From an uncultured virus (IMG/VR IMGVR_UViG_3300035698_022433) (lineage: Duplodnaviria; Heunggongvirae; Uroviricota; Caudoviricetes): a stretch of 20,000 nt of DNA. Shown here piece after piece: positions 4,190 to 19,316 of this stretch (position 1 is the stretch's first letter; each line of letters starts with the position of its first letter). The notes under the pieces are model-generated. The model was not told where the DNA came from, ran no database searches, and saw nothing but the letters and a program-made list of their open reading frames with translations. Location of the stretch: the IMG/VR virus record IMGVR_UViG_3300035698_022433; one strand, 5' to 3'. A program made the position numbers and the translations under genes.

Positions 4190-4315
4190 GCCAACGTACC
4201 CAAGTTAGGACGACGGGGCCAGACTTAAGTGTTTATTTTAAGGGTTATACTCAAATCCTATCGGAGATATCTGGTGTGGGTAGCTGCCTCACAGGTTCAA
4301 ATCCTGTCGTTGGCA
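4190..4315 (+). tRNA. trnL: tRNA-Leu(TAA) with 39-nt intron (4230-4268) at 37/38
   Basis: Acceptor GCCAACG/CGTTGGC; anticodon stem CCAGA/TCTGG; long variable arm; TTCAAAT T-loop; relaxed BHB. Confidence 0.85.
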
Positions 4316-4375
4316 TAAGTTTTGAACATTGATTGTTATATTAATAAAGAAGGTTTGGAAATTGAAAAATGTAAT

Positions 4376-4456
4376 GCCAACGTAGTCAAGTGGTCTAAGA
4401 CGACGGGTTTAGGACCCGTGCGTAGGCAATCGTCGGTTCAAATCCGTCCGTTGGCA
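4376..4456 (+). tRNA. trnL: tRNA-Leu(TAG)
   Basis: Cloverleaf; ACGGG-TT TAG GA-CCCGT. Confidence 0.92.
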
Positions 4457-4599
4457 CTATGAAAATAAAACAAACCTAAGATGAGCAACGGGAAGTTGCG
4501 TGTCTTAGGAAATGTATATGCGTAGACATAGTGGAAAAAAGTATTATGCAAGAAAGTTCAATCAACAAAGACGAAAATTGGTTAAAGAAATAAACAAAA

Positions 4600-4685
4600 G
4601 CAGGAGTGGCAGAGTGGTCTATCGTCACGGGGTGCTAACCCGATGAATCATTGAGATTGCGTCCGTTCGAATCGGACCTCCTGCG
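4600..4685 (+). tRNA. trnS: tRNA-Ser(GCT)
   Basis: GCAGGAG/CTCCTGC acceptor, G73, long variable arm. Confidence 0.88.
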
Positions 4686-4688
4686 TAG

Positions 4689-5363
4689 GTGAATATCATG
4701 CGTCAATGGCGAAGATATAAAAGTACATATCGGATAAAGCATCCACAGTATTACATTAAAGGAAAACGCAACCTCACTCGTCAAGAGGAACGCACTCTCT
4801 TTGGTGGTACAGTTACTGTTACTGAGAAGATGGATGGTGCCAACACTGGTCTATTCAAAAAGAACGACAAGATGTTCCTACAAAAACGCGGCAGCCTCGT
4901 CGACGATAGTCATCCACAATTTAAGTTCTTCAAAAATCAATGGTTTTGGGACAACTACGAAAAGCTCGAACAACTCCCCGACAACGCAGTAACGTATGGT
5001 GAATTAATGCGCTGCACTCACACAATCCACTACGACAAACTCCCGGATTGGTGGTTGGTCTTTGATATCTACGATTTACAAAAACATCAATATCTTCCTT
5101 GGCATGAAGTAGCAAGAATCTGTTACGACATTGGATTGTCAACTGTACCACACATATTCACTGGTAGTTGTATGGACAGACCGACGATATCAGAAATAAT
5201 GCCAATTGAATCTATATACGGCAACAGGGCAGAAGGAATAGTAGTAAAGAATTACAAAAAACAAATGAGAGGAAAAGTAGTTCATCCCGAATTTATAAAA
5301 GACCCTAGTTTCGATAAACATTGGTCTAGCAGAACTGCAACATTTAATAAATTGGAGAGGTGA
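4689..5363 (+). CDS. RNA ligase family protein (Rnl2-like adenylation domain)
   Basis: TEKMDGAN, YGEL, FDI and EGIVVK motifs; start could be ATG 4698 after GGTGA. Confidence 0.85.
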   Translation: MNIMRQWRRYKSTYRIKHPQYYIKGKRNLTRQEERTLFGGTVTVTEKMDGANTGLFKKNDKMFLQKRGSLVDDSHPQFKFFKNQWFWDNYEKLEQLPDNAVTYGELMRCTHTIHYDKLPDWWLVFDIYDLQKHQYLPWHEVARICYDIGLSTVPHIFTGSCMDRPTISEIMPIESIYGNRAEGIVVKNYKKQMRGKVVHPEFIKDPSFDKHWSSRTATFNKLER

Positions 5364-5444
5364 CCGAGCACGGTTTATGGTGGGCGCCTTGAGAGCGTCA
5401 GTGTAGTAAAAGCTACACCAGCGGTTCAAATCCGCTTCTCTCCG
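5354..5444 (+). tRNA. trnS: tRNA-Ser(TGA)
   Basis: GGAGAGG/TCTCTCC acceptor; GGCGC-CT TGA GA-GCGTC; long variable arm. Confidence 0.92.
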
Positions 5445-5445
5445 T

Positions 5446-5757
5446 ATGAAAAACCAAAACAGAGCAAAGTTCAGAGAATCCGTATTCAAACGGGACAATA
5501 ACAAATGTGTAGTTTGTTCTGAGAAAGCAGTTGATGCGCATCATTTAATTGAAAGACGATTATGGAAAGAACCATCTGAACAAGGCGGATACATAGTAGA
5601 TAATGGAGTATCACTTTGTTCACAACATCATATAGATGCAGAAAAAAATATCATATTACCAAAAACACTGAGAGAATATGCTGGTATAAAGAAGATAGTT
5701 TTACCATTAGGTTTTGATGAAACAAAGGAATATAATAAATGGGGAAAACTTATTTAA
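5446..5757 (+). CDS. HNH endonuclease
   Basis: RDxxxCxxC...DAHH...NGVSLCxxHH. Confidence 0.85.
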   Translation: MKNQNRAKFRESVFKRDNNKCVVCSEKAVDAHHLIERRLWKEPSEQGGYIVDNGVSLCSQHHIDAEKNIILPKTLREYAGIKKIVLPLGFDETKEYNKWGKLI

Positions 5758-5804
5758 GCCCTTTACCATTCTTTTTTATGCTTGGGGGCAACTTGGTTTA
5801 CCAT

Positions 5805-5885
5805 TGACCTGTATGAAAATATGAACCCACATCTATCCCAATATCAAAGGGATGTTCTATTCAATTAAGCTATACCATACAGGTC
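5805..5885 (-). pseudogene. degenerate tRNA-Ile(GAT)-like element
   Basis: Minus strand: acceptor GACCTGT/ACAGGTC+A, D-arm-like TAGCTTAATTGAATAGAAC, TCCC..GAT..GGGA arm, GTGGGTTCA T-arm; 6-nt insertion after the acceptor strand and a weak T-stem. Confidence 0.5.
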
Positions 5886-5892
5886 TACTGGT

Positions 5893-5907
5893 AAAAACAT
5901 TTAAATA
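5893..5907 (+). promoter_or_regulatory. BRE-TATA promoter of SRP RNA (possibly bidirectional)
   Basis: AAAAACA-TTTAAATA ending about 22 nt before 5929. Confidence 0.6.
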
Positions 5908-5928
5908 TACCATTGTCTTTCGCTATTT

Positions 5929-6239
5929 AGATGCAGAATAGACTGGGGAGTTTGGTGTTCCCTTTGCACAAATCGCCAATAGTGGGTCGAATCCAAAGGG
6001 CAGTGTACGACTCCCTTTTGACTTCAACGTTAAACAATGATGATTCGTCCCTCGGAATCTAAGTCGTTGGCTATGTTAAATCGGAAGATTTAATAACCTT
6101 CATTATTAGATAAATCGGGCGAGGCACGGAAGTGAGCAGCCTTAATCTAAACTATAGGTGTTCAAGGGTCTGCGGATTTGAGAATAGTGCTGATTATCAA
6201 TTGGATAGTACGATATTCACCTGCGGAGTTTCTGCGTCT
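5929..6239 (+). ncRNA. ffs: archaeal-type signal recognition particle (7S) RNA, about 311 nt
   Basis: Terminal helix AGATGCAGAA/TTCTGCGTCT; Alu-domain helices with complementary loops TTGGTG/CGCCAA; helix 6 with GGAA loop (6069-6098); helix 8 AGG-CAC-GGAA-GTG-AGCA SRP54-binding motif (loop 6128-6131). Confidence 0.88.
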
Positions 6240-6284
6240 TTATAGTAAGGAAAACTTTTAATAAACTAAGTCCTATATCTGTTT

Positions 6285-6410
6285 ATGAAAAAACGAACCG
6301 AGTGCGAAGTCTATTCCCGAGTTGTTGGTTATCTTCGTCCTGTTAATCAATGGAACCGCGGGAAACAACAAGAATTTAAGGATAGAAAGGCTTTTAGAAT
6401 AAAAAAGTAA
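6285..6410 (+). CDS. stand-alone NrdD C-terminal glycyl-radical domain mini-protein (41 aa)
   Basis: MKKRTECEVYSRVVGYLRPVNQWNRGKQQEFKDRK carries the class III RNR RVxGY glycyl-radical motif; TATA-like TTTTAATA at 6256-6263. Confidence 0.85.
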   Translation: MKKRTECEVYSRVVGYLRPVNQWNRGKQQEFKDRKAFRIKK

Positions 6411-6440
6411 ATTCCTATGTTTTAAAGTATTAATTATTTA

Positions 6441-6454
6441 GAAAGATTTATATA
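6441..6454 (+). promoter_or_regulatory. BRE-TATA promoter
   Basis: GAAAGA-TTTATATA about 25 nt before ATG 6479 (leaderless). Confidence 0.6.
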
Positions 6455-6478
6455 TTACTATATGTATATTGTTTATAA

Positions 6479-6661
6479 ATGAAAAGTAGTAATGTATATT
6501 TGATATTTCTAGTAGCATGTATTATTCAGTATATAACGTTAGTAACAAGTTTTGTGCAAAGTACAGATTATTATACTACAGTAGCACGTATAGGAATAAC
6601 AAGTGTGTTAATGGGAGTTAGTGTATATTTTCATATAACGAGAAAAAGCATTGGTGATTAA
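6479..6661 (+). CDS. small membrane protein (2 TM)
   Basis: Two hydrophobic segments. Confidence 0.55.
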   Translation: MKSSNVYLIFLVACIIQYITLVTSFVQSTDYYTTVARIGITSVLMGVSVYFHITRKSIGD

Positions 6662-7312
6662 ATGAATGAAAAGTATAACATTGAAGGATTAGCTAAAGTT
6701 GCAAAAAAAATTGTGTCATCTTGCGCACAACATATGCCAATGATACATTTAGTATCAAAGGACAATGAAGTAACTATTTGTGGACTTGGTTTTGATAGTG
6801 ATGAAGCAAAACATAAAATGTTAGATATGTTTAGGAAAAAAGTACAAGACGAAAAGATACCTCATTATTTTGTAATTATAGAAGGATGGCTCGGCAACAA
6901 TGTTCACATTCGGCCAAGCCGCGACTTTGAAAGAAGAGAAGCATTAATCATTTGTGAATTCAAAGATACAATGGAACGTAAAACAATCATAATGCCGTTT
7001 ACTAAAGAAGACAAAAAAATAATATGGGAAGAAGAAATATCACTTGTTGATTCAGAACAATATAACATGTGGGACTTCTATCGCGAAGACGTATCAGCTG
7101 AAATGCATGAGAAACACCGCAGAGAAGCTTTGTTAAAAGAGTTTAGAGAAACAGATGTTAAAGATGCTTGGGATAAAACAATTGAGCAATATAAAAAAGA
7201 AACTGGTAAAGACCTACCACCAAGCTTTAATATAAAAAGGACAAGGGAAACGATTGAAAGGATGATTAATGAAGGTAGGGTTTCAAAGAGAGTTAACAGG
7301 ATAGATAAATGA
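6662..7312 (+). CDS. hypothetical protein (216 aa)
   Basis: GGTGA SD; long ORF. Confidence 0.7.
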   Translation: MNEKYNIEGLAKVAKKIVSSCAQHMPMIHLVSKDNEVTICGLGFDSDEAKHKMLDMFRKKVQDEKIPHYFVIIEGWLGNNVHIRPSRDFERREALIICEFKDTMERKTIIMPFTKEDKKIIWEEEISLVDSEQYNMWDFYREDVSAEMHEKHRREALLKEFRETDVKDAWDKTIEQYKKETGKDLPPSFNIKRTRETIERMINEGRVSKRVNRIDK

Positions 7313-7363
7313 AAGTTGAAGACGGAGTTGTAATAGTAGGACGAAGAGAACTTAAAGAGATAA

Positions 7364-7576
7364 ATGATGAACACAGAAATCGATATCCCTGATTGGTTAA
7401 TACAGTTGAATCAATATGATACTGTTATCTTTTTCATAATGTCAATTGTTGGTGTGTTTTTAATCATACATAGTTTGCGAATGAAATGTTCTGAGTGTGG
7501 ATTTGTCGTGTTCTTAACAGGTTGTAGTGCATTAATACTTGGTGGAATTGGCCTAATAATCTTTAGTTTAGAGTAA
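7364..7576 (+). CDS. small membrane protein (2 TM)
   Basis: Two hydrophobic segments flanking CSEC. Confidence 0.55.
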   Translation: MMNTEIDIPDWLIQLNQYDTVIFFIMSIVGVFLIIHSLRMKCSECGFVVFLTGCSALILGGIGLIIFSLE

Positions 7577-7589
7577 TAATTAGACCATA

Positions 7590-7602
7590 GAAAGTTATAT
7601 AA
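7590..7602 (+). promoter_or_regulatory. BRE-TATA promoter of the main tRNA cluster
   Basis: GAAAG-TTATATAA. Confidence 0.55.
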
Positions 7603-7812
7603 ACCTCTAATTACATATTATTTATTATCCAGTGTTCTATTTATCTGGGTTAGTGATATTATGTCTATATGTCAACCGCGACAACATTGGCAGAAAATGC
7701 CTTACATTTTTAATAGAATAGTCGCGGGAACGGATGTAGAGACAACCGAATAATTTTTGGGGCCTTTCTCAGACGGTAGTCGAAGGGTCTCTTTTCTATT
7801 AAATTTTTTGTT

Positions 7813-7883
7813 GCCGGTATAGCACAATGGCAGTGCGGGGAGCCTGTAACTCTCTGATGGGTGTTCGACTCGCTCTATCGGCT
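7813..7883 (+). tRNA. trnT: tRNA-Thr(TGT)
   Basis: GCCGGTA/TATCGGC acceptor, U73; GGGAG-CC TGT AA-CTCTC. Confidence 0.85.
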
Positions 7884-7971
7884 TAAGTGGAATAACGACT
7901 TAGAGGGACGTTATCGACGTTCGCAATATCTAACATATTATATACTATGTTTGTATACCAAATGTGAAACA

Positions 7972-8388
7972 GTGACTAAATACAAAATAATAAGAATGAA
8001 AGATGGAACAAGAAAAAGAGAACATAGATTAATTATGGAAGAGCATTTAGGAAGAAAATTAAGAAAAAATGAAATTGTTCATCACAAAAATGGAAATACT
8101 TTGGATAACAGGATAGAAAATCTTGATTTACTTACTTCGTCAGAACATGGAAGGAAACATTATAAACAAAATGATGTGTATAAATTTAACAAAAAAGATA
8201 TAAAAAGAGGAGCTACTACGTCAAATATAAAAAGACGTGTAAAGTGTACTGGTGATTATTATCAATGTTCTATGTGCAAAAAAATGATACACAAAAGCAA
8301 GTTTAATACAAAGAAATGGCGGTGGAATGGTTTGCAAACAATATGTAAAGTATGTACAAAAAAATACTATAAGAAATATTATAGATAA
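7972..8388 (+). CDS. HNH homing endonuclease with C-terminal Zn finger
   Basis: [14 protein letters not shown]...[16 protein letters not shown]; two CxxC pairs; start moved to GTG 7972 because the track start lies inside tRNA-Thr. Confidence 0.85.
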
Positions 8389-8389
8389 C

Positions 8390-8462
8390 GCGCTTGTACG
8401 ATAATCTGGCAGTCTTACACCCTTCCAAGGTGAAAGTGAGTGTTCGAATCACTCCTGGCGCA
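8390..8462 (+). tRNA. trnG: tRNA-Gly(TCC)
   Basis: GCG...CGC+A acceptor; CACC-CT TCC AA-GGTG. Confidence 0.85.
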
Positions 8463-8587
8463 TCAGCGGTAGCTTAGCCTGGTAAAGCTCTAAATACTCT
8501 AAACGCTTATCTCCTTAACGGGCAGTACAGTTAAGAGTTACTTCGACTTGTAATCGAGAGACCTGGGTTCGAATCCCAGCCGTTGAT
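8463..8587 (+). ncRNA. tRNA-Thr(TGT)-like RNA with a ~50-nt Y-RNA-like stem inserted between D and anticodon arms
   Basis: Acceptor TCAGCGG/CCGTTGA, full D-arm, TCGA-CT TGT AA-TCGA, perfect T-arm; insert ACTCTAAACGCTTATCTC...GCAGTACAGTTAAGAGTTACTTC. Confidence 0.7.
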
Positions 8588-8590
8588 TTT

Positions 8591-8712
8591 GCAGGGGCAA
8601 CATAAACTCTATACGTTTATCTCTGGAAACAGCAGTGTAGTAGAGAGTTACTTCGGTAAAAAACAAATCTGTAAAATTTGTCTAAGGGAGTTCGAACCTC
8701 CCACCCCCTGCA
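8591..8712 (+). ncRNA. tRNA-Tyr(GTA)-like RNA whose D-arm is replaced by the same Y-RNA-like stem
   Basis: Acceptor GCAGGGG/CCCCTGC+A; CAAAT-CT GTA AA-ATTTG; GGGAG-TTCGAAC-CTCCC; insert AACTCTATACGTTTATCTC...GCAGTGTAGTAGAGAGTTACTTC. Confidence 0.65.
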
Positions 8713-8716
8713 AAAT

Positions 8717-8788
8717 AGTCCCATAGGATAATGGAAGTCCGCCTGGCTTTGAACCAGGCAGAGGTCGGTTCAACTCCGCCTGGGACTG
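8717..8788 (+). tRNA. trnQ: tRNA-Gln(TTG)
   Basis: AGTCCCA/TGGGACT (A1:U72 as in archaeal Gln); CCTGG-CT TTG AA-CCAGG. Confidence 0.9.
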
Positions 8789-8864
8789 TGTGCCGTAGTC
8801 TAGCACGGAGGCAGGCAACGGGCTCATAACCCGTGGTACGAAAGTTCAAATCTTTCCGGCGCAA
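8789..8864 (+). tRNA. trnM: tRNA-Met(CAT), initiator-like
   Basis: Three consecutive G:C pairs in the anticodon stem (ACGGG-CT CAT AA-CCCGT); first pair is U:A rather than A:U. Confidence 0.8.
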
Positions 8865-8868
8865 TCTT

Positions 8869-8941
8869 GGGGACGTGGTCTAATTGGAATGATAGCGGTG
8901 TTGCATACCGTTGACTGCTGGTTCGAATCCTGCCGTCTCCA
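8869..8941 (+). tRNA. trnA: tRNA-Ala(TGC)
   Basis: G3:U70 identity pair; TGC anticodon. Confidence 0.9.
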
Positions 8942-9017
8942 CTGGTAGCTAAACAAAAAATTAGTTGTATGCTGTGTTCACAGCTTGAACATACAAACTG
9001 ATTATTAGCTACTCTAT

Positions 9018-9088
9018 GCTTTCGTGTTTCAACGGTAGAATACCAGGCTGTCTACTTGGTGATTCGGGTTCGATTCCCGGCGAGGGCG
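9018..9088 (+). tRNA. trnD: tRNA-Asp(GTC)
   Basis: Cloverleaf; G73; CCAGG-CT GTC TA-CTTGG. Confidence 0.9.
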
Positions 9089-9137
9089 TATGTTGGAAGA
9101 GAAACGTAGCAGGACTTACGACCTGCATAAACATAGT

Positions 9138-9229
9138 ACTCCTGTAGTGTAGTGGACAATCATGTCTGGCTTTCAAATCTCATTAAATGAAGAGACCAGG
9201 CGACGTGGGTTCAATTCCCGCCAGGAGTG
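9138..9229 (+). tRNA. trnE: tRNA-Glu(TTC) with 19-nt BHB intron (9176-9194)
   Basis: CTTT/GAAG central helix with two 3-nt bulges. Confidence 0.88.
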
Positions 9230-9261
9230 TCGCACTGAAAAGTGCAATAGGTGAAAGAGCC

Positions 9262-9582
9262 ATGAAAGAAAAATACATAGCGGTCTTAGAAGATCGAGAA
9301 GAAGAAAGAGTCCTTAAAACAGAGGATGGAAAAGAAGTTGAAATAAAATACGAACATTACCCAAGCGTTGTCGGACCACGAAGTGTTTACACTGGTCTTC
9401 CTATTTGGGTTGGAAAAACTGAAGCAAACGGTTGCTTAGACGGCGGAACATCAATTGATGTTGAAGCGCGTTGCTGGACACATGAACCATATTCATATAG
9501 TCAAGCGCGCGTGGTATCAACTGGTCGTCTATTAAAACAACTTGGACTTCCAACAAAACTAGCAGAACAAGTAAAGGATTAA
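9262..9582 (+). CDS. hypothetical protein (106 aa)
   Basis: AGGTGA SD before ATG 9262; the track start overlaps tRNA-Glu. Confidence 0.65.
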   Translation: MKEKYIAVLEDREEERVLKTEDGKEVEIKYEHYPSVVGPRSVYTGLPIWVGKTEANGCLDGGTSIDVEARCWTHEPYSYSQARVVSTGRLLKQLGLPTKLAEQVKD

Positions 9583-9595
9583 ATCCTTTACTTAT

Positions 9596-9669
9596 GGGTT
9601 CGTAGAACAATCTGGGAGTTCGCCGTCTTGAAGGGGCGGATGTTGTAGTTTCAAATACTACCGAACCCA
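9596..9669 (+). tRNA. trnF: tRNA-Phe(GAA)
   Basis: GGGTTCG/CGAACCC acceptor; CCGTC-TT GAA GG-GGCGG. Confidence 0.85.
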
Positions 9670-9673
9670 CTAC

Positions 9674-9765
9674 ACCCATGTATTCTAGTCCGGTTAAGAA
9701 GGCACCCTTACAAACCAATTGGTTAAGATAGGTGTTTATCAGCGGTTCAAATCCGCTCATGGGTA
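9674..9765 (+). tRNA. trnV: tRNA-Val(TAC) with 17-nt BHB intron (9713-9729)
   Basis: Textbook BHB: CTTA/TAAG helix, 3-nt bulges, ACC/GGT outer helix. Confidence 0.92.
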
Positions 9766-9767
9766 CT

Positions 9768-9983
9768 ATGTCAAAGACATACAAATTAATTCAATACAAA
9801 AACGGTCAACCTATATACAGTAGACATCTCAGAAGAGATGCACCATATCAATGGTTCAGAAAAGACCATCCACTTGCACGAAGAGCATACTACAAATCAT
9901 TTAGAATGAAGCAGAAGCAATATCTTAAGAAGTTCAATGATTGCATTAAATTTGTAAGAACTAATGGTTGGTTAACCCATTAA
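9768..9983 (+). CDS. small basic hypothetical protein (71 aa)
   Basis: ATG 2 nt after tRNA-Val; K/R/Y-rich. Confidence 0.6.
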   Translation: MSKTYKLIQYKNGQPIYSRHLRRDAPYQWFRKDHPLARRAYYKSFRMKQKQYLKKFNDCIKFVRTNGWLTH

Positions 9984-9984
9984 T

Positions 9985-10073
9985 GATTCCGTGGTCGAAT
10001 TGGTAAGGCATTGGGCTGCAACATAAAAAATGCGGATACCCAAAGACTGAGTGTTCAAATCACTCCGGAATCT
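9985..10073 (+). tRNA. trnC: tRNA-Cys(GCA) with 16-nt BHB intron (10022-10037)
   Basis: U73; CTGC/GCGG central helix. Confidence 0.88.
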
Positions 10074-10074
10074 T

Positions 10075-10149
10075 GAGCCTGTAGTTCAGCTAGGTCAGAA
10101 TACCGGACTCTTAATCCGTAGGTCGCGAGTTCAAATCTTGCCAGGCTCA
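10075..10149 (+). tRNA. trnK: tRNA-Lys(CTT)
   Basis: Cloverleaf; CT CTT AA loop. Confidence 0.92.
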
Positions 10150-10151
10150 CT

Positions 10152-10225
10152 GAATGGGTAGCGTAGCTAGGTCACGCGTTCGGCTTTTAACCGGATACAG
10201 GCGGGTTCAAATCCTGTCCCATTCA
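10152..10225 (+). tRNA. trnK: tRNA-Lys(TTT)
   Basis: Cloverleaf; CT TTT AA loop. Confidence 0.9.
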
Positions 10226-10231
10226 CTAATT

Positions 10232-10416
10232 GGGGCCATATCCCAGTGGTCTAAGGAGCCTGGCTCATATCAGCAAGATGGCAAATTCCCGATGGAGCGT
10301 ACAAAAAACAGTAAGCCTGGTTTGGTAAGTCGTCGTGGCAAACCTCTCCAACGCGCAACGAAAGCCATCCGCTGGGGGAAACCAGGTATTCGCAGGTTCG
10401 AATCCAGCTGGCCCCA
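10232..10416 (+). tRNA. tRNA(CAT), elongator Met or Ile2, with 111-nt intron (10270-10380)
   Basis: GGGGCCA/TGGCCCC+A; CCTGG/CCAGG anticodon stem; near-BHB with CAGC/GCTG outer helix. Confidence 0.82.
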
Positions 10417-10419
10417 CTA

Positions 10420-11064
10420 ATGAAAATATGCGCAATGTCGGATTTACACCGACACCAAATAGATATTCCAAAATGCGATGTATTAGCGATAGCAGGCGAC
10501 ATCAGTGGATTTGATGATGCCAAATGGTTTGGTGAAATCTTTCTTCCATACTTAAAAGAACAAAAAAATAAATACGACATTTGTCTTCTTGTCTTTGGAA
10601 ACCACGATGATATGATACATGCCGCGAATGTTTCTTTTCCGCTTGCTTCAGATTATGTAAAAATTCTTACCAACAAGGAATTTACATATAAGGGTGTAAA
10701 ATTCTTTGGTTCACCATACTGCAAATACTCAGAAAAAATAGTTGACAGCATCAATGCATTCGAGGAACCATTCCTCAAAACGTTATTCAATGACATTCCG
10801 GAAGACACCGATGTACTAATCACTCATTCACCACCATATGGATTTGGTGATACTGTAATAAATCAATCATACCATCTTGGCAGTACATCACTTACAGAAC
10901 GAGTTCGAATAGTAAAACCAAAAATTCATATCTTTGGTCACATTCATACAGGTAAAAAATATACAAAAGAGAATGGCACAAGCTATTACAATGTATCAAT
11001 ATTAAATGATAATTATGAACTAACATACAAACCAACAATAATCAATTATGTAACAGCCACATAG
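10420..11064 (+). CDS. calcineurin-like metallophosphoesterase
   Basis: SDLH, AGD, GNHD, THSPP and GHIH motifs. Confidence 0.92.
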   Translation: MKICAMSDLHRHQIDIPKCDVLAIAGDISGFDDAKWFGEIFLPYLKEQKNKYDICLLVFGNHDDMIHAANVSFPLASDYVKILTNKEFTYKGVKFFGSPYCKYSEKIVDSINAFEEPFLKTLFNDIPEDTDVLITHSPPYGFGDTVINQSYHLGSTSLTERVRIVKPKIHIFGHIHTGKKYTKENGTSYYNVSILNDNYELTYKPTIINYVTAT

Positions 11065-11134
11065 GTCCGTGGTCGATTGGTAATGATACCCTCCTGATAA
11101 GTGGGAGAAGAGAGTTCGATTCTCTCCGGACCTA
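11063..11134 (+). tRNA. trnI: tRNA-Ile(GAT)
   Basis: AGGTCCG/CGGACCT+A; CT GAT AA loop. Confidence 0.88.
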
Positions 11135-11136
11135 CT

Positions 11137-12015
11137 ATGATGAAAAAGTATTATTGTAATTACTGTTGTGAATGGATAGAATGTAAAAATGGAAAATCTT
11201 TTGGTGGTCATAAATCAAATTGCAAAGATAATCCAATAAGAGAAGAAAAGAATAAAAAGATAAGTGAAGCAAATAAACGGAACCATCCAAAAAAAGCTTA
11301 CAAATTAATTTGCAAAAAGTGTAAAAAACAATATACAATTGAAATGACAGAGTATGTCTATGGTAACAATAAATATAGGAAACATTGTTCAAGAAAATGT
11401 GCGAACTCACATGTTCAGTCTTTAACACAAAATAATGCTAGAAGAAAAAAACTACTTGGACGAAACACACATGTTGTTGTATTCATAACAAGAGAATGTA
11501 AAATTTGTAAAACATTGTTTGTTGTCAGAAAAGGTAATGATAGAAAGTGTTGCACAAGAAGTTGCTCAGTAAAGTATGCAATGTATGTTGCACAAAAAAG
11601 AAGAAATTTATCATGGTCTGAAATTCATTTAAAATCATTTAAAAATGGTAGAAAACCAACTGGTAAATATTATGTAGAGTGGTTTACTTACGGCCACATT
11701 AAAGTTCAAGGTACTTATGAACTTCGTACGTGTTATATTTTAGATGCTATGAAAGAAATGGGAGAAATAACAGATTGGAAATACACGTTTGACAGATTCC
11801 CATATATTGGTTTTGATGGAAGAGAACATAGTTATTTTCCAGATTTTAAAGTATTTGGAAATGATACATATTATATTGAAGTTAAGGGTTTATTAAACGA
11901 TATTGATAAGGTTAAATGGAAATCAGTTAGAGACAATGAATACAGATTAGAAGTTTGGGATTTAGATGTAATAAAAAATAATGAAAGCTGTTATGGAATA
12001 ACCACCTGTCCTTAG
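11137..12015 (+). CDS. Zn-finger plus PD-(D/E)XK (TnsA-like) putative homing endonuclease
   Basis: Repeated CxxC...CSxxC modules; YFPDF...YIEVKG; true start ATG 11137. Confidence 0.8.
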   Translation: MMKKYYCNYCCEWIECKNGKSFGGHKSNCKDNPIREEKNKKISEANKRNHPKKAYKLICKKCKKQYTIEMTEYVYGNNKYRKHCSRKCANSHVQSLTQNNARRKKLLGRNTHVVVFITRECKICKTLFVVRKGNDRKCCTRSCSVKYAMYVAQKRRNLSWSEIHLKSFKNGRKPTGKYYVEWFTYGHIKVQGTYELRTCYILDAMKEMGEITDWKYTFDRFPYIGFDGREHSYFPDFKVFGNDTYYIEVKGLLNDIDKVKWKSVRDNEYRLEVWDLDVIKNNESCYGITTCP

Positions 12016-12077
12016 TGTTAACAGAAGCACATCGAGCTGTAGACTCGAAAGAATCGGCGCAAATCCGGTAGGACAGA
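12006..12077 (+). tRNA. trnY: tRNA-Tyr(GTA), archaeal type
   Basis: C1:G72, A73, short variable loop; TCGAG-CT GTA GA-CTCGA; atypical T-loop CGCAAAT. Confidence 0.88.
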
Positions 12078-12079
12078 CT

Positions 12080-12715
12080 ATGAAAATAAGTATGTGGATA
12101 CCTGAAACAAAAAATCCTGTTTGGGTACAGGACTTCATAAATATCGAAATGATACAAGCAGGAAATATAAAGTCAAAAACTACAAGAGAATCTGTAGTTG
12201 ATGGTCTGTATATTGCACAAAGACTTGCAAAACCTGGAATGTGTGTTTACGTAGAAGGAAGAGACTGTGATTTGGATACTTATCGAGGAAAAGAGTTTAA
12301 GTATCACTGCGGAAGAGAGTTTATCACACCAGAAAAGGAAAATGATTACACCTAACTACTCGTATGCTTTGATGCCAATGACCTCTATATAGGTGAATTC
12401 AATGGAAGAGATATCCACGAGCTATATCATAAAAATTCAAACGTAGCACGAAAACATGATGCTGGAGGACAGTCTCAACGTCGATTTGAAAGAGGACGAG
12501 ATGAGTCGTTAAAACATTGGTTCAAAGAAATAGTTGGTTTGGTTAACGATTACAAAAATAGAAGGCCAATATATCTTGGATGTAATGGTATGTACAAAAA
12601 TAGAATAAAAATCAAAGACGTAGTCTTTACAAAAAGTGTATCCATAGACGATAATTGTCTATGGGAGTTAATGGAGGTATCAAGAAATGTTCAAACCGAA
12701 AAGATTGAAGGCTAA
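12080..12715 (+). CDS. prf1: aRF1/eRF1 peptide chain release factor homolog (N+M domains) with in-frame TAA at 12353-12355
   Basis: NIKS (12164-12175) and YHCGREF (YxCxxxF) before the stop; same frame after it gives RKHDAGGQSQRRFER (GGQ 12464-12472). Confidence 0.88.
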
Positions 12716-13130
12716 AGATGCAAAATACTGTACAAATTGTATAGATGAAGAATTAGAGCCACATGTAAAGAGAATAGACTTTGCAATGAAGACCAGAACG
12801 TTTATCATAGACTTTTGGTTTTGTCCTGAATGTGGTGCAACGTACTACTTCAAGGATTGGACTAGTATAGTTGAAAAGAATGAAGTACCAATGAGCGGTC
12901 ATAAAATGTTGAATAAGGAAACTGGAAAATACGAACATATCACTGACCCAAAAAACCTACCGGCAACTAGCTGGGCAGAAACGATGGTATGTGCTGGAGA
13001 CGAGAAAAGATTGGAAGCTCTTTGGGAAAAACGTGGAGCTGAAAAAGAAGCAGTACTGAAGGAGTTGGAGAAGACAGGTAAGTGGGATGTTGAAGAGTAT
13101 TACAAAGTAAAGAAAAGAATGGGCTTGTAG
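12687..13130 (+). CDS. hypothetical Zn-ribbon protein
   Basis: CTNC and CPECG; GGAGGT SD. Confidence 0.65.
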   Translation: MFKPKRLKAKDAKYCTNCIDEELEPHVKRIDFAMKTRTFIIDFWFCPECGATYYFKDWTSIVEKNEVPMSGHKMLNKETGKYEHITDPKNLPATSWAETMVCAGDEKRLEALWEKRGAEKEAVLKELEKTGKWDVEEYYKVKKRMGL

Positions 13131-13193
13131 CACAATCGGAAATGCGATGGCCTTCGAAGCCATAGACTGGGCGTTCGAGTCGCCCCAGGCCCG
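13121..13193 (+). tRNA. trnR: tRNA-Arg(TCG)
   Basis: ATGGC-CT TCG AA-GCCAT. Confidence 0.9.
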
Positions 13194-13194
13194 T

Positions 13195-13314
13195 ATGAAA
13201 AGATTCGTATGTGAAATAACATGTCCTGTTTGCAAACAAGATTTCATAATGACAGGACCAGAAAGAATTTGTCTTCAATGCAGGAATAAAATAAAAAATG
13301 GGAACATGGTGTAA
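13195..13314 (+). CDS. 39-aa Zn-ribbon mini-protein
   Basis: MKRFVCEITCPVCKQDFIMTGPERICLQCRNK: two CxxC pairs filling the gap between two tRNAs. Confidence 0.55.
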   Translation: MKRFVCEITCPVCKQDFIMTGPERICLQCRNKIKNGNMV

Positions 13315-13373
13315 TAGGCAACATATCTGCCTCCAGAGCAGAAGACTTGTGAGTTCGATTCTTACTGTTCCCT
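13300..13373 (+). tRNA. trnW: tRNA-Trp(CCA)
   Basis: TCTGC-CT CCA GA-GCAGA; no intron. Confidence 0.88.
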
Positions 13374-13376
13374 TAT

Positions 13377-13449
13377 GGGCTTGTGGTGTAACTTGGTATC
13401 ACCGGGGTTTTGGATACCTCAAATTCAGGTTCAAATCCTGGCTAGCCCA
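13377..13449 (+). tRNA. trnP: tRNA-Pro(TGG)
   Basis: GGGGT-TT TGG AT-ACCTC. Confidence 0.86.
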
Positions 13450-13451
13450 CT

Positions 13452-13874
13452 ATGCAAACACAAAAATTTCAAATAAAACCGATAGAGGATATAATAAGAG
13501 ATTATTCAGCGCTAAAGAAAATATATCCTTTAAAAATGGAAGTGATAGTGATAACTAGAAACAAATACGATTATAGTTTTACTCCATTGTTAGAACTTGA
13601 CTTTGATGATATCACAAGTGAATACAGATCGACTGAAACAATATCAATTAACAAAGAACATATTAAAAAAATTAAAGAAAAGATTCCAGAAATTAAAGCT
13701 GCTGATACTGTATTTGTATGTTGTGATGCTGGACTATCTCGCAGCCCAGCAGTGGCGAAAGCATTATCACACTATCTACATGACATTCAATCATTCAATT
13801 ACTTAGCATACAGATATCCATTTGCAAACAAAGATGTGTTCGAAACACTCCTAATTGGATTAAAGGAAGGATAG
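13452..13874 (+). CDS. CX5R (tyrosine/dual-specificity-like) phosphatase
   Basis: CDAGLSRSPAVA P-loop. Confidence 0.8.
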   Translation: MQTQKFQIKPIEDIIRDYSALKKIYPLKMEVIVITRNKYDYSFTPLLELDFDDITSEYRSTETISINKEHIKKIKEKIPEIKAADTVFVCCDAGLSRSPAVAKALSHYLHDIQSFNYLAYRYPFANKDVFETLLIGLKEG

Positions 13875-13940
13875 CTGAGTCTGGCCTAAAGCATCGGACT
13901 GTTAATCCGATGATCGTCGGTTCAAATCCGACTCCTTCCG
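13865..13940 (+). tRNA. trnN: tRNA-Asn(GTT)
   Basis: TCGGA-CT GTT AA-TCCGA; G73. Confidence 0.92.
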
Positions 13941-13942
13941 CT

Positions 13943-14039
13943 GCGATAGTAGTTTAGTGGTCTAGAATTCCAGACTGTGAAAAATCATAACATGATTTGC
14001 AGAACTCTGGAGACCCGAGTTCGAATCTCGGCTATCGCC
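13943..14039 (+). tRNA. trnH: tRNA-His(GTG) with 24-nt BHB intron (13981-14004)
   Basis: C73; CTGT/GCAG helix, AAATCAT/ATGATTT outer helix; G-1 not encoded. Confidence 0.9.
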
Positions 14040-14043
14040 CTTT

Positions 14044-14116
14044 GGGTGTATAGTATAATCGGATAGAATAATGGACTTCTAATCCATAGATGCGGGTTCG
14101 ATTCCTGCTACGCCCG
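14044..14116 (+). tRNA. trnR: tRNA-Arg(TCT)
   Basis: ATGGA-CT TCT AA-TCCAT. Confidence 0.9.
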
Positions 14117-16050: not shown

Positions 16051-16834
16051 ATGTCAAATAAATTCGGAACCCGAGAATGGGCAGAGGTAAATAAAAATAT
16101 TTTGCTTGGTTGCGAAAATTCGTGCCTTTATTGTTATAGCAGATACAATGCTGTGAAAAGATTTAAGACAGTTAAAAGTGTAGATGATTGGAAGACTCCT
16201 GAAATCATTGATAAGAAACTTGAAGAGAAACCCCGGTTTTACAAAGGCAGAATCATGTTTCCAACACAACATGATATACTTCCGAAATATCTTGATAAAA
16301 CAATAATTTATTTAAGAAAATTATTAGATGTTGGTAATGAAATTCTTATAGTATCAAAACCACATATTGAATGTGTTAAAGCAATGTGCAACGAATTTGA
16401 AAAATACAAGAAACAAATAGTATTTAGGTTTACAATTGGAAGTCCAAACAATGATGTTCTCAAATTTTGGGAACCCGGTGCTCCGGATTATGATGAGCGA
16501 TTGACATCACTTAAATATGCATTTACAAAAGGTTACACAACATCAGTATCATGCGAGCCTATTCTTGACAATGACATTTCATTAATGGTAAACCCAACTT
16601 CTTCCATTCATTAGTGATACAATATGGTTAGGCAAGATGAATTTCATCAAATCTAGAGTTGATACTAGCTTGTGGTCAAAGGATGATTTTAAATACCTTT
16701 CAATGGTTAACGAAGTAAATGAGGACGAATTTATTTTTGACCTTTATGATGAATTTAAAGACAATCCCAAAGTTAAGTGGAAAGAATCCTGTAAGAAGGT
16801 TCTTGGATTGCCTGATGAAGAAGGGGTAGCATAA
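16051..16834 (+). CDS. radical SAM protein (SplB-like) interrupted by a +1 frameshift near 16594
   Basis: GCENSCLYCY CxxxCxxC; removing one C in AACCCAA joins ..SCEPILD..MVNQLLPFISDTIWLGKMN to ORF 16637-16834. Confidence 0.75.
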
Positions 16835-16965: not shown

Positions 16966-17213
16966 TGGTATTGGAAGTTCGAGGAAAGTTTCTATATTTT
17001 GAACATGACAAAGGAAAGTTTGAGTTTGTTAGAATAGATAATATTTTAGCTTGTTGGGACCAATATGATGATGAGTGTGAAATTAAATATATTAGTAATG
17101 ATGAGGATTTTGATATTACTGTGTTAAATCACACTGCAAAAGAAGTTCTTGATGTATTGTGCAAAAGGAGAAGACCAGATGGCAGAGAAGTGTCCAAATT
17201 GCAGAAAAAATAG
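16965..17213 (+). CDS. hypothetical protein, possibly a diverged member of the FlbD-like family
   Basis: GAGGAG SD; FL....FVRIDNI...EIKY...TAKEVLDVL pattern. Confidence 0.55.
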   Translation: MVLEVRGKFLYFEHDKGKFEFVRIDNILACWDQYDDECEIKYISNDEDFDITVLNHTAKEVLDVLCKRRRPDGREVSKLQKK

Positions 17214-17406
17214 TTTTCTATTATTTCCAGGTGGTGATTCAGTTGGTTATTATTCGTGTATTTATTGTGGGTACACTATTAGAAGATCAAATGATGCGTT
17301 ACATGTATATATTAAAAAGTTTAAATGCGACGATGAAAAAGTAAAAACACCTTTACAATTATACGAAAAAAGAAGGAAGAAAAAACATGAGATTAACCGG
17401 GGTTAG
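17179..17406 (+). CDS. Zn-ribbon protein directly upstream of the retron
   Basis: CPNC...CIYCG; AGGAG SD. Confidence 0.6.
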   Translation: MAEKCPNCRKNSFLLFPGGDSVGYYSCIYCGYTIRRSNDALHVYIKKFKCDDEKVKTPLQLYEKRRKKKHEINRG

Positions 17407-17606
17407 TTCAGGGCTGAAGCAATTCGGCAGGAATGATGATTCGTCATTCTCTTGTGCTGGCAGGATTAGATGTTGGCAAGATGTATTACTTATAGTCAAA
17501 TATAAAGTATATATCTCGATGCAGTGTTCTCCTAGAACATCCATAAACTTTATATAAAGTTTATATTAAATCAATAAGCGTTCAAATACACTGCATTCGT
17601 AACCCC
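17399..17606 (+). ncRNA. putative retron msr-msd RNA
   Basis: a1/a2 inverted repeat GGGGTTA (17399-17405)/TAACCCC (17600-17606) with G at 17406; short hairpins at 17413-17428 and 17430-17450; stem ATGCAGTGT (17519-17527)/ACACTGCAT (17588-17596). Confidence 0.75.
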
Positions 17607-17623
17607 CTAAAATTGGTGTAATT

Positions 17624-18457
17624 ATGAATCGATTCGAGGAACTAAAGAAAGTGATTGCAAACAAACAATCGCACTATACATCGTACAATATCAAAAAACG
17701 CAGCGGCGGCAACCGCCGTATCACAACTCCGGATAAGTTTCTAAAGCGAATACAACAAGAAATACTTTTTGACATTCTTGACTTTGTTGATATAGATAAG
17801 CATGCTATGGGTTTTGTCAAAGGCCGCGGCATCTACACAAATGCAAAGAAACATCTCAACTCCGCTTGTATCGTAAAACTTGATTTAAAAGATTTCTTTC
17901 CATCTATTAAGAAAGAAATGATAATAAAATCACTTGAGGGAAAGGTCAGCGCACCACATGCCATTGCCGAACTGACAACAATAAACAATTCTTTACCACA
18001 GGGAGCACCAACCAGTCCGTGTCTTTCAAATATTGTTTGTATTGAACTCGATAAGAAATTAACAAACCTTGCGGCAAAGTTTCATGCACGATATACTCGT
18101 TACGCCGATGACATCACGTTCAGTAGCAAAACAAATAAACAATTAGATAAAATCATTCCGAAAACACATTCATTTGTTCTGCACCAAGGTTTTGATATCA
18201 ATTATAAGAAGACACAAGTAATGCGCCGCGGTGGTCGCCAAACAGTAACCGGACTTACCGTTAATGATGCTGTTAATGTTCCGCGAACACGTGTTAGAAA
18301 CTTACGTGCTGAAATACACAAAAAGAAATATACAGGCATATCACTTGACGAACGCGGTCGTCTCGCTGGTGTTTCATCATTCATTTATGGCGCAAACAAA
18401 AAGAAAGGTCAAAAATTCTATGATGACCTTGATAAGCTTCCAATACTTAAACGGTGA
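17624..18457 (+). CDS. retron-type reverse transcriptase (277 aa)
   Basis: KKRSGGNR, NAKKH (region X), DLKDFFPSI, LPQGAPTSP, YADD, VTG (region Y). Confidence 0.93.
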   Translation: MNRFEELKKVIANKQSHYTSYNIKKRSGGNRRITTPDKFLKRIQQEILFDILDFVDIDKHAMGFVKGRGIYTNAKKHLNSACIVKLDLKDFFPSIKKEMIIKSLEGKVSAPHAIAELTTINNSLPQGAPTSPCLSNIVCIELDKKLTNLAAKFHARYTRYADDITFSSKTNKQLDKIIPKTHSFVLHQGFDINYKKTQVMRRGGRQTVTGLTVNDAVNVPRTRVRNLRAEIHKKKYTGISLDERGRLAGVSSFIYGANKKKGQKFYDDLDKLPILKR

Positions 18458-18461
18458 TTAA

Positions 18462-18812
18462 ATGAAAGACAGAAAAAAACCAACAGAACATAGACAAGGA
18501 AACTTAGTAAAGCTTCTTGACTTAATGCAAAGATTTTCAGAAATGCAATATGATACTGATTTCTTTACAGGAGAATTTAATATAAGTGAAAAACACAAGA
18601 ATGAAATAAAAGACATGATGCTTGAAATAAGAAAATTCGATATCAAAACTATTGGCGATCTTTACTTTACATCAGGAGGTCGCGTTGTCCTTGATAAGGG
18701 ATATGGAGAATATTTTGGTGAAAGTGATAAAGTAATATTTACTCTTAATGAACTTATTAGTGGAATGAATAGTGATAAATTTATAAAACGTTTGAACGAG
18801 GTAATTAAATGA
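18462..18812 (+). CDS. hypothetical protein downstream of RT
   Basis: GGTGATTAA-ATG. Confidence 0.65.
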   Translation: MKDRKKPTEHRQGNLVKLLDLMQRFSEMQYDTDFFTGEFNISEKHKNEIKDMMLEIRKFDIKTIGDLYFTSGGRVVLDKGYGEYFGESDKVIFTLNELISGMNSDKFIKRLNEVIK

Positions 18813-18997: not shown

Positions 18998-19171
18998 ATG
19001 AATTTAGGAGAATTAAAAAAAGAACTTGAAAAATTTGATAATGATGAGCTTGATATAATGGTAACAACTGGTAGTTACAATGAACCATTATTTGAAATAG
19101 AGAAGATGTCTGAACAAATTAGTAAAAATCCAGATATTTCAAGATATGAATATATACTATTGGTTGGGTGA
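18998..19171 (+). CDS. hypothetical protein (57 aa)
   Basis: AGGTGA SD; MNLGELKKELEKFD virus-type N-terminus. Confidence 0.55.
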   Translation: MNLGELKKELEKFDNDELDIMVTTGSYNEPLFEIEKMSEQISKNPDISRYEYILLVG

Positions 19172-19175
19172 TTAA

Positions 19176-19316
19176 ATGAACATAGAAAACGACCTTGATG
19201 AACTTGAAGCATATCTTGGATTCAAACCAACAACAAAAGTCCGACACCAAAAATCAAAAGGCGGATTTTTTAAACGATTATTTGGTCGTAAAAAGAAAGC
19301 TGATGAGTGGGGATAA
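19176..19316 (+). CDS. 46-aa peptide with amphipathic GGFFKRLFG helix
   Basis: GGTGATTAA-ATG; MNIENDLDELEAYLGFKPTTKVRHQKSKGGFFKRLFGRKKKADEWG. Confidence 0.6.
   Translation: MNIENDLDELEAYLGFKPTTKVRHQKSKGGFFKRLFGRKKKADEWG

Follow-up and report, generated by a model that had tools for sequence, protein, structure and literature searches.

The question raised by this locus is why a segment predicted to serve as the reverse-transcription template of a retron should contain a perfect 22-nt palindrome resembling an archaeal promoter, and whether it is this likeness or the hairpin formed by the palindrome that has been retained. The window, by which we mean the whole stretch of 20,000 nucleotides that was analysed, contains an archaeal SRP RNA and, in an Rfam-type RNA search, 24 tRNA matches that exceed the gathering score, as well as RNA ligase, HNH and DHH ORFs and many short ORFs of no assigned family, a combination from which we infer that it comes from a large archaeal virus-like element. 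It was found in salt-lake sequencing runs, with 3 of 16 run rows sharing at least half of its words; none of the 16 rows listed is an RNA dataset. The SRP RNA (5931-6237), carried on a virus-like element, is full-length and archaeal, and the tRNA matches are spread over 4190-14116, several of them with inserts. Inside the tRNA array, at 12080-12680, there are two short consecutive frames, the first of which weakly matches the N-terminal part of aRF1. The RNA ligase ORF (4689-5363) and the HNH-like ORF (5446-5757) match the two halves of PHROG 24030 in the opposite order and are separated by a tRNA-like stretch. Within 16051-16830, a Radical SAM ORF stops at 16614, and an overlapping frame seems to run on to about 16830, which is possibly due to a frameshift or an assembly error.

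The window was compared with a relative locus, L001, whose reverse transcriptase (RT) is 85% identical to its own and which is the only member of the RT clade compared as DNA; with P0001, P0002 and P0004-P0018, which entered the comparison as proteins only; and with reads from 4 of the 16 runs (X3, X4, X5 and X9), X1 and X2 being left out as possible sources of the window. The reads of X4 and X5 miss the non-coding RNA (ncRNA), those of X3 are identical to the window over 17380-17842 and may lack independence, and X9 provides a 90% identical variant (record 9) with 21 differing letters in 203 nt, up to 4 of which lie outside those listed by position. The comparison of msd sequences thus covers two msd types from four sequences, one of them partial. 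The features on which the argument depends are the following (position in the window, strand, description):

17179..17406, +, Cys-pair (zinc-ribbon-like) ORF of 75 aa; the priming G is the last letter of its TAG stop; no PADLOC family
17314..17327, +, BRE-TATA-like site with the box at 17320, candidate promoter of msr-msd-RT, presumed active; leave-one-out score 10.3
17399..17405, +, a2 arm of the terminal inverted repeat, GGGGTTA, pairing with 17600-17606; 7 of 7 pairs the same in L001
17406, +, predicted site of priming (branching), a G that follows a2 immediately in a TAG context; conserved in L001
17413..17516, +, msr with four stem-loops (17413-28 with a GCAA tetraloop, 17430-50, 17455-78 and 17479-17516)
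17519..17527, +, 5' arm of the msd basal stem, all pairs Watson-Crick; one G-C pair compensated to A-T in L001
17527..17537, +, core TTCT-CCT-AGAA of a small hairpin (GTTCT-CCT-AGAAC, 17526-17538)
17543..17564, no strand, perfect 22-nt palindrome, apical msd hairpin with a 9-bp stem and an ATAT loop; symmetric BRE-TATA-BRE as double-stranded DNA
17554..17567, +, second, overlapping promoter-like site with the TATA octamer at 17560-17567; matrix score 10.7, absent from L001
17588..17596, +, 3' arm of the msd basal stem, 9 bp with 17519-17527
17599..17606, +, opposing G at 17599, where templating is predicted to begin, and a1 arm TAACCCC (17600-17606); conserved in L001
17624..18457, +, retron-type RT of 277 aa (RVT_1), with NAKKH, YADD and VTG
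19176..19316, +, 46-aa ORF with a basic amphipathic tail; 85% DNA identity with L001 over 142 nt

The earlier note on this DNA had described a retron with the palindrome inside its msd, and this description is supported by anatomy, conservation and the class of the RT. The msr hairpins, the msd stem-loop and the RT gene follow one another in the order typical of retrons, and both the window and L001 have a terminal repeat with the priming G at its inner end. The 241 nt 5' of the RT gene fold with a z-score of -3.8 (-3.2 in L001), and all 7 G.U pairs of the window ncRNA fall within the msr and none in the msd, which fits the four hairpins acting as RNA and the arm as DNA. The a1/a2 repeat is only 7 bp long and the priming context is TAGT instead of TAGC, in comparison with the usual length of 8-30 and the TAG(C) context given in PMC6868368. 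Judged by its sequence, the unit is nevertheless a genuine and convincing retron, and anatomy together with conservation indicates that the stretch with the palindrome is its msd. The 75-aa Cys-pair ORF is absent from L001 and hence lies outside the travelling unit. The small hairpin, which the earlier note had placed within the msd stem, is present in letters; it competes with the basal stem, and its pair probability in the DNA fold is just 0.02-0.05. In L001 a TTCT-NNN-AGAA core occupies the same place, and there the hairpin folds.

No Rfam match was found at the ncRNA, and a sequence model built from two rows matches only those two within 78 of 240 sources. Several other leads were dropped. 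A potential pairing of 17499-17514 with 17552-17567 (14 of 16 positions) is lost in L001 and weaker in X9, and the sole match of an msr pattern in IMG/VR (L239, from its proteins apparently a plant virus RNA segment) is a chance identity of 18 nt. A frame across the ncRNA, starting at 17387, is open for 56 codons in the window and 62 in L001; it was rejected as a toxin of the kind encoded in the Type VI hybrid RNA (10.1101/2025.10.22.683967), with 1 synonymous and 11 non-synonymous changes over 47 codons. The homology between the window and L001 begins exactly at the ATG located 12 nt before a2 (17387 in the window, 2686 in L001), and a loose end in X9 joins L001-type upstream DNA at the same base.

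The RT passes the NCBIfam model for St85 retron RTs narrowly (236.8 bits, cut-off 235), is matched by PADLOC retron RT models, and finds its best relative of solved structure in RT-Eco1 (E 5.5e-34). The leading PADLOC model, RT_XIII, is also top-ranked for 5 of 6 other RTs scanned, so these scores assign no retron type. Region X (NAxxH), YADD and region Y (VTG) are all present, the N and H of NAxxH being invariant in 19 of 19 aligned rows, and the codon changes between the window and L001 (88 synonymous, 42 non-synonymous) speak for an RT with complete catalytic motifs under purifying selection. A homologue search that took in proteins up to 485 aa returned 18 sequences at 50-92% identity, the next ones being at most 47% identical. 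In a quick tree of 106 rows (the window, P0001-P0060 and the best 45 of 236 locus RTs), the window RT, its 18 homologues and L001 form one branch (SH-aLRT 100), which has no firm sister group. In IMG/VR no member of the clade was found among the 15 candidates of a single-protein scan, among the listed matches of an RT-alignment scan (best identities up to 43%), by two clade-specific patterns (0 matches), or among 16 results of a scan with the downstream gene. One clade member occurs among the 80 matches listed in a metagenome scan and none among the 80 listed in a genome scan. A distinct clade of short retron RTs in archaeal mobile DNA, with no known effector, is in fact a sturdier novelty than the palindrome.

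The palindrome itself, ATAAACTTTATATAAAGTTTAT at 17543-17564, equals its own reverse complement, as had been claimed, and lies between the basal-stem arms. The window has 8 perfect palindromes of at least 12 nt, of which this is the longest; it has no second copy there, and a palindrome of at least 22 nt arose in 1 of 100 order-1 and 1 of 100 order-3 simulated 20-kb windows. Its form, a purine-rich BRE followed by TTTA(A/T)A(T/A)A, is that of an archaeal promoter, with TATA octamers starting at 17549 on the plus strand and at 17558 on the minus strand. The resemblance to other promoters of the window, for which the earlier note had quoted sites that do exist (6442 and 14142; 4069; 7591), could be quantified with a weight matrix built on 11 intergenic BRE-TATA sites chosen by hand in the window and L001, the palindrome not included. 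It scores 13.5 on both strands, which is rank 6-7 in the window and the top among non-training sites, the leave-one-out scores of the training sites being 3.6-15.3. Random perfect 22-nt palindromes reach this score in 9, 80 and 138 cases per 20000 at 65%, 80% and 91% A+T (0.05-0.7%), and upstream of 205 other retron-like RTs there are 5 perfect palindromes of at least 18 nt, 0 of 5 scoring above 2.6, and a single promoter-like hairpin; since the finding was picked for its promoter likeness, both rates overstate the surprise. The 205 loci remain from 236 after removal of duplicates and short flanks, are mostly bacterial, and have a presumed ncRNA position. A sigma-70 scan, a model not apt for archaea, showed nothing at the msd.

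The comparison with L001 separates the conserved parts of the unit from the variable ones. From a2 to the third msr hairpin (17399-17481) 81 of 83 positions are identical, in the fourth hairpin 31 of 40 (with one G.U to A-U change in the stem), and in the basal stem with a1 29 of 31 (20 of 21 over 17588-17608); in the inner msd, only 30 of 60 are. L001 folds on the same plan, and in the same structural place it has a different, imperfect apical hairpin with GGTTAATATTGACC at its centre and a best promoter score of 1.7, versus 13.5 in the window. In X9, record 8 is a loose end running into an L001-type msd start, and in record 9 the palindrome is retained with a single listed change, at 17548, which gives a wobble pair in RNA and a mismatch in DNA. 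Among the listed changes of record 9, 1 falls on the 22 palindrome positions and 10 on the 38 other positions of the inner msd (Fisher p = 0.043). Five of them are at 17538-17542, and the letters at 17539-17542 all complement 17565-17568, which adds four pairs to the stem, so that the octamer 17560-17567 is wholly paired, as is the entire TTTATATT arm. The second promoter-like site (17554-17567) has no listed change in this record. The conservation of the palindrome, a check proposed in the earlier note, is thus divided: X3 is identical, X9 record 9 differs by one letter and L001 has a replacement. A hairpin is kept in every sequence seen across this place and the TATA letters in one of two msd types, i.e. 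in this small sample the motif is not conserved among all close relatives.

Taking this together, we consider it somewhat better than an even bet that the palindrome is the apical hairpin of an msd arm which is free in sequence and selected for its shape, any promoter activity being incidental. As the hairpin of L001 at this place is a different one, the likeness to a promoter probably does not reflect a conserved transcription-factor decoy. A single transcript would fold a2 onto a1, and the RT would prime from the 2'-OH of G17406 and copy the template backwards, starting near 17599 and ending near 17517-17510. The product would be a branched msDNA of about 85-90 nt composed of the basal stem, a short middle stem and, as its apical hairpin, the palindrome. 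Relatives would keep the shape of the hairpin at the tip of the arm, not its letters; here the tip would be an A+T-rich palindrome, perhaps promoter DNA in origin, which hairpin correction then symmetrised. Some two-way transcription may well start from it in the genome, incidentally, and the folded msDNA would present TBP with no duplex TATA box. The job of the retron is most likely, with about an even chance, that of other retrons, namely a DNA sensor for conflicts between this and other mobile elements. This reading is favoured by L001, with its near-identical msr, basal stem and RT and its divergent inner msd, by the variable and replaceable sequence of msd hairpins (PMC6868368, 10.1101/2023.09.27.556556), and by the position of the palindrome sites, 75 and 64 nt from the next ATG, unlike the 31-32 nt before an ATG or RNA start seen for 5 of 10 sites among the promoters of the element; besides, the upstream site at 17320 is already there. 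Against it speak the rarity of promoter-like scores among random palindromes and the low scores of the five other long ones, and the sparing of the palindrome in X9 record 9, which fits selection on a hairpin and also on a promoter.

A possible though distinctly less probable explanation is that the palindrome is a selected two-way internal promoter doubling as the msd hairpin. Sense transcription from about 17580 would then yield an RT mRNA with a 44-nt leader, free of the msr-msd fold and of RNase H, and antisense transcription from about 17527 an RNA over the msr that could damp msDNA synthesis. The score on both strands is within the range of the element's own promoters, and a pyrimidine-purine step at 17579/17580, retained in X9 record 9, lies 31 nt past the TATA start, which is the spacing of the SRP RNA gene. 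The RT start is preceded by GGTG (17615-17618), but such leaders are typical for genes within the long operons of the element. BRE-TATA-BRE sites drive two-way transcription with starts about 50 nt apart in Pyrococcus, also in vitro, although most such antisense RNA is regarded as noise (both PMC6640164). The internal RT promoter proposed as the simpler alternative in the earlier note is possible in this lineage only, where it would be two-way; it is missing from L001 despite the near-identical msr and RT, and a promoter-like site already lies upstream of the msr in the window and in L001, where a BRE-TATA is found 52 nt before a2.

The bolder proposal, that multicopy msDNA acts as a TBP/TFB decoy or sensor, does not agree with the geometry of the msd. 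TBP binds duplex TATA, and TFB requires a duplex upstream of it. When folded as DNA at 37 C, the palindrome forms a 9-bp stem paired at 0.77-0.99 with the ATAT centre of the TATA box unpaired; of the 17549 box, three bases belong to the 5' arm, the next four to the loop, and the last folds back (3 of 8 on the paired arm), and the 17560 box has 5 of 8 bases on a paired arm, so that single msDNA molecules of the window type contain no duplex TATA. We therefore consider it improbable that msDNA titrates or senses TBP/TFB as a bait, in one lineage, through a longer hairpin or a 22-bp dimer duplex. The longer hairpin is offered by X9 record 9, in which, by inspection, the octamer becomes fully double-stranded; retention of the TATA palindrome together with the longer stem leaves room for a lineage-specific role, yet the change at 17548 places a DNA mismatch beside the box. 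The dimer would gain from -19.0 kcal/mol, compared with -4.8 for each of two hairpins, and at a micromolar copy number is estimated to about break even. Titration of transcription factors has been achieved with engineered retrons, whose decoys carry fully double-stranded sites (10.1101/2023.09.27.556556), and msDNA can sequester MutS (PMC6868368). On the other hand, L001 has no such site, and a constitutive decoy would presumably strike the element's own genes, since its promoters share the consensus. It is just as improbable that the unit is a stand-alone retron with a swappable bait at the msd tip, whose BRE-TATA-BRE both binds TBP/TFB (as a hairpin or dimer) and serves as a two-way promoter in the genome.

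Least probable of all, and in our view quite unlikely, is that the palindrome serves a dimeric regulator as its operator or is a remnant, the retron having lost the ability to make msDNA: perfect palindromes overlapping promoters are typical operators, the a1/a2 repeat is shorter than usual and no known effector is nearby, but the RT is under purifying selection with all catalytic motifs, the msr is almost invariant, the basal stem is compensated, and the window holds no second copy of the palindrome.

PADLOC retron effector models match 0 of 8 distinct neighbours in the window and 0 of 4 in L001, and no effector domain is fused to the 277-aa RT; one winged-helix protein of L001 weakly matches Csa3/CARF models. 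The 46-aa ORF is the only other window sequence common to L001, where it lies directly 3' of the RT, and the Atlas gives it a lead of 0.77. Its frame is open, with 8 synonymous versus 7 non-synonymous changes and ACG as the start codon in L001, and family and profile searches including PADLOC gave no match; it is a weak candidate for a partner of the retron. A GGTGATTAAATG junction occurs at the end of the RT gene (18453-18464) and before the 46-aa ORF (19167-19178), corresponding to 3742-3883 of L001; the three ORFs between the two junctions are missing in L001, in which the RT abuts the 46-aa ORF. L001 also contains seven copies of an intergenic motif of about 45 nt with the core GGAATGGNNGACATATTT (at 450, 1801, 2612, 3893, 4613, 5147 and 6433), which flank single-gene cassettes: a beta-helix surface protein, a PKD protein, the retron with its own promoter, a Vut_1 transporter, the winged-helix protein and others. 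The motif is absent from the window, and its exact consensus has 0 matches in IMG/VR. Within an element that is Thermoplasmatota-like, this arrangement has the look of an array of gene cassettes or of a family of intergenic repeats that carry promoters.

With Retron-Eco1 (Ec86) and the St85 RT family this unit shares the msr-msd-RT order, a1/a2, the TAG priming G, NAxxH and VTG. It differs from bacterial retrons in its archaeal virus-like host and own RT clade, in four msr hairpins instead of one to three, in a branched, short-stemmed msd in place of a single long stem (hairpin number and stem as given in PMC7736814), and in having no NDT, PRTase or other listed effector. The tripartite types I-XIII defined in PMC7736814 have an effector gene or fused domain beside the RT, which is not the case here. 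Among its close counterparts are the stand-alone msr-msd-RT cassettes of clades 2 (the Retron-Eco5/Ec107 branch) and 11, without a recognisable effector (Mestre et al. 2020, PMC7736814), although the RT_Ec107-like model ranks just 12th among PADLOC models for the window RT. Promoters of the BRE-TATA-BRE type in Pyrococcus furiosus (PMC6640164) have the same symmetric TATA with a BRE on each side; the present site is a candidate only, a perfect 22-nt palindrome inside a reverse-transcription template. Similarly, pretroDNA decoys (10.1101/2023.09.27.556556) have a factor-binding motif encoded in the msd, with the whole site in a double-stranded stem, whereas in this natural case the TATA box crosses the loop.

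Archaeal retrons are known but rare (PMC8867640, PMC6868368, PMC8632793), retrons being only 4% of archaeal RTs (PMC8632793), and the main texts of an experimental census (PMC10849725) and of the SPIRE survey (10.64898/2026.05.14.725207) do not mention them. The RT tables of PMC7736814 and PMC8632793 may include members of this clade, and the freedom of msd sequence is already in print (PMC6868368). In the literature searched, which covers few subscription journals, we found among the papers listed neither the phrase 'archaeal retron' nor any link between retrons and TATA-binding protein, nor a natural promoter-mimic msDNA or a retron from an archaeal virus. If the preferred reading is true, the palindrome itself is ordinary; if msDNA did act as a bait, it would be, as far as we found, the first case in nature of msDNA directed at basal transcription factors. 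In addition, a compact msr-msd-RT unit with a relative that differs only in the msd tip offers a ready test of what effector-less msDNA does, and the unit is a candidate retron tool for archaea.
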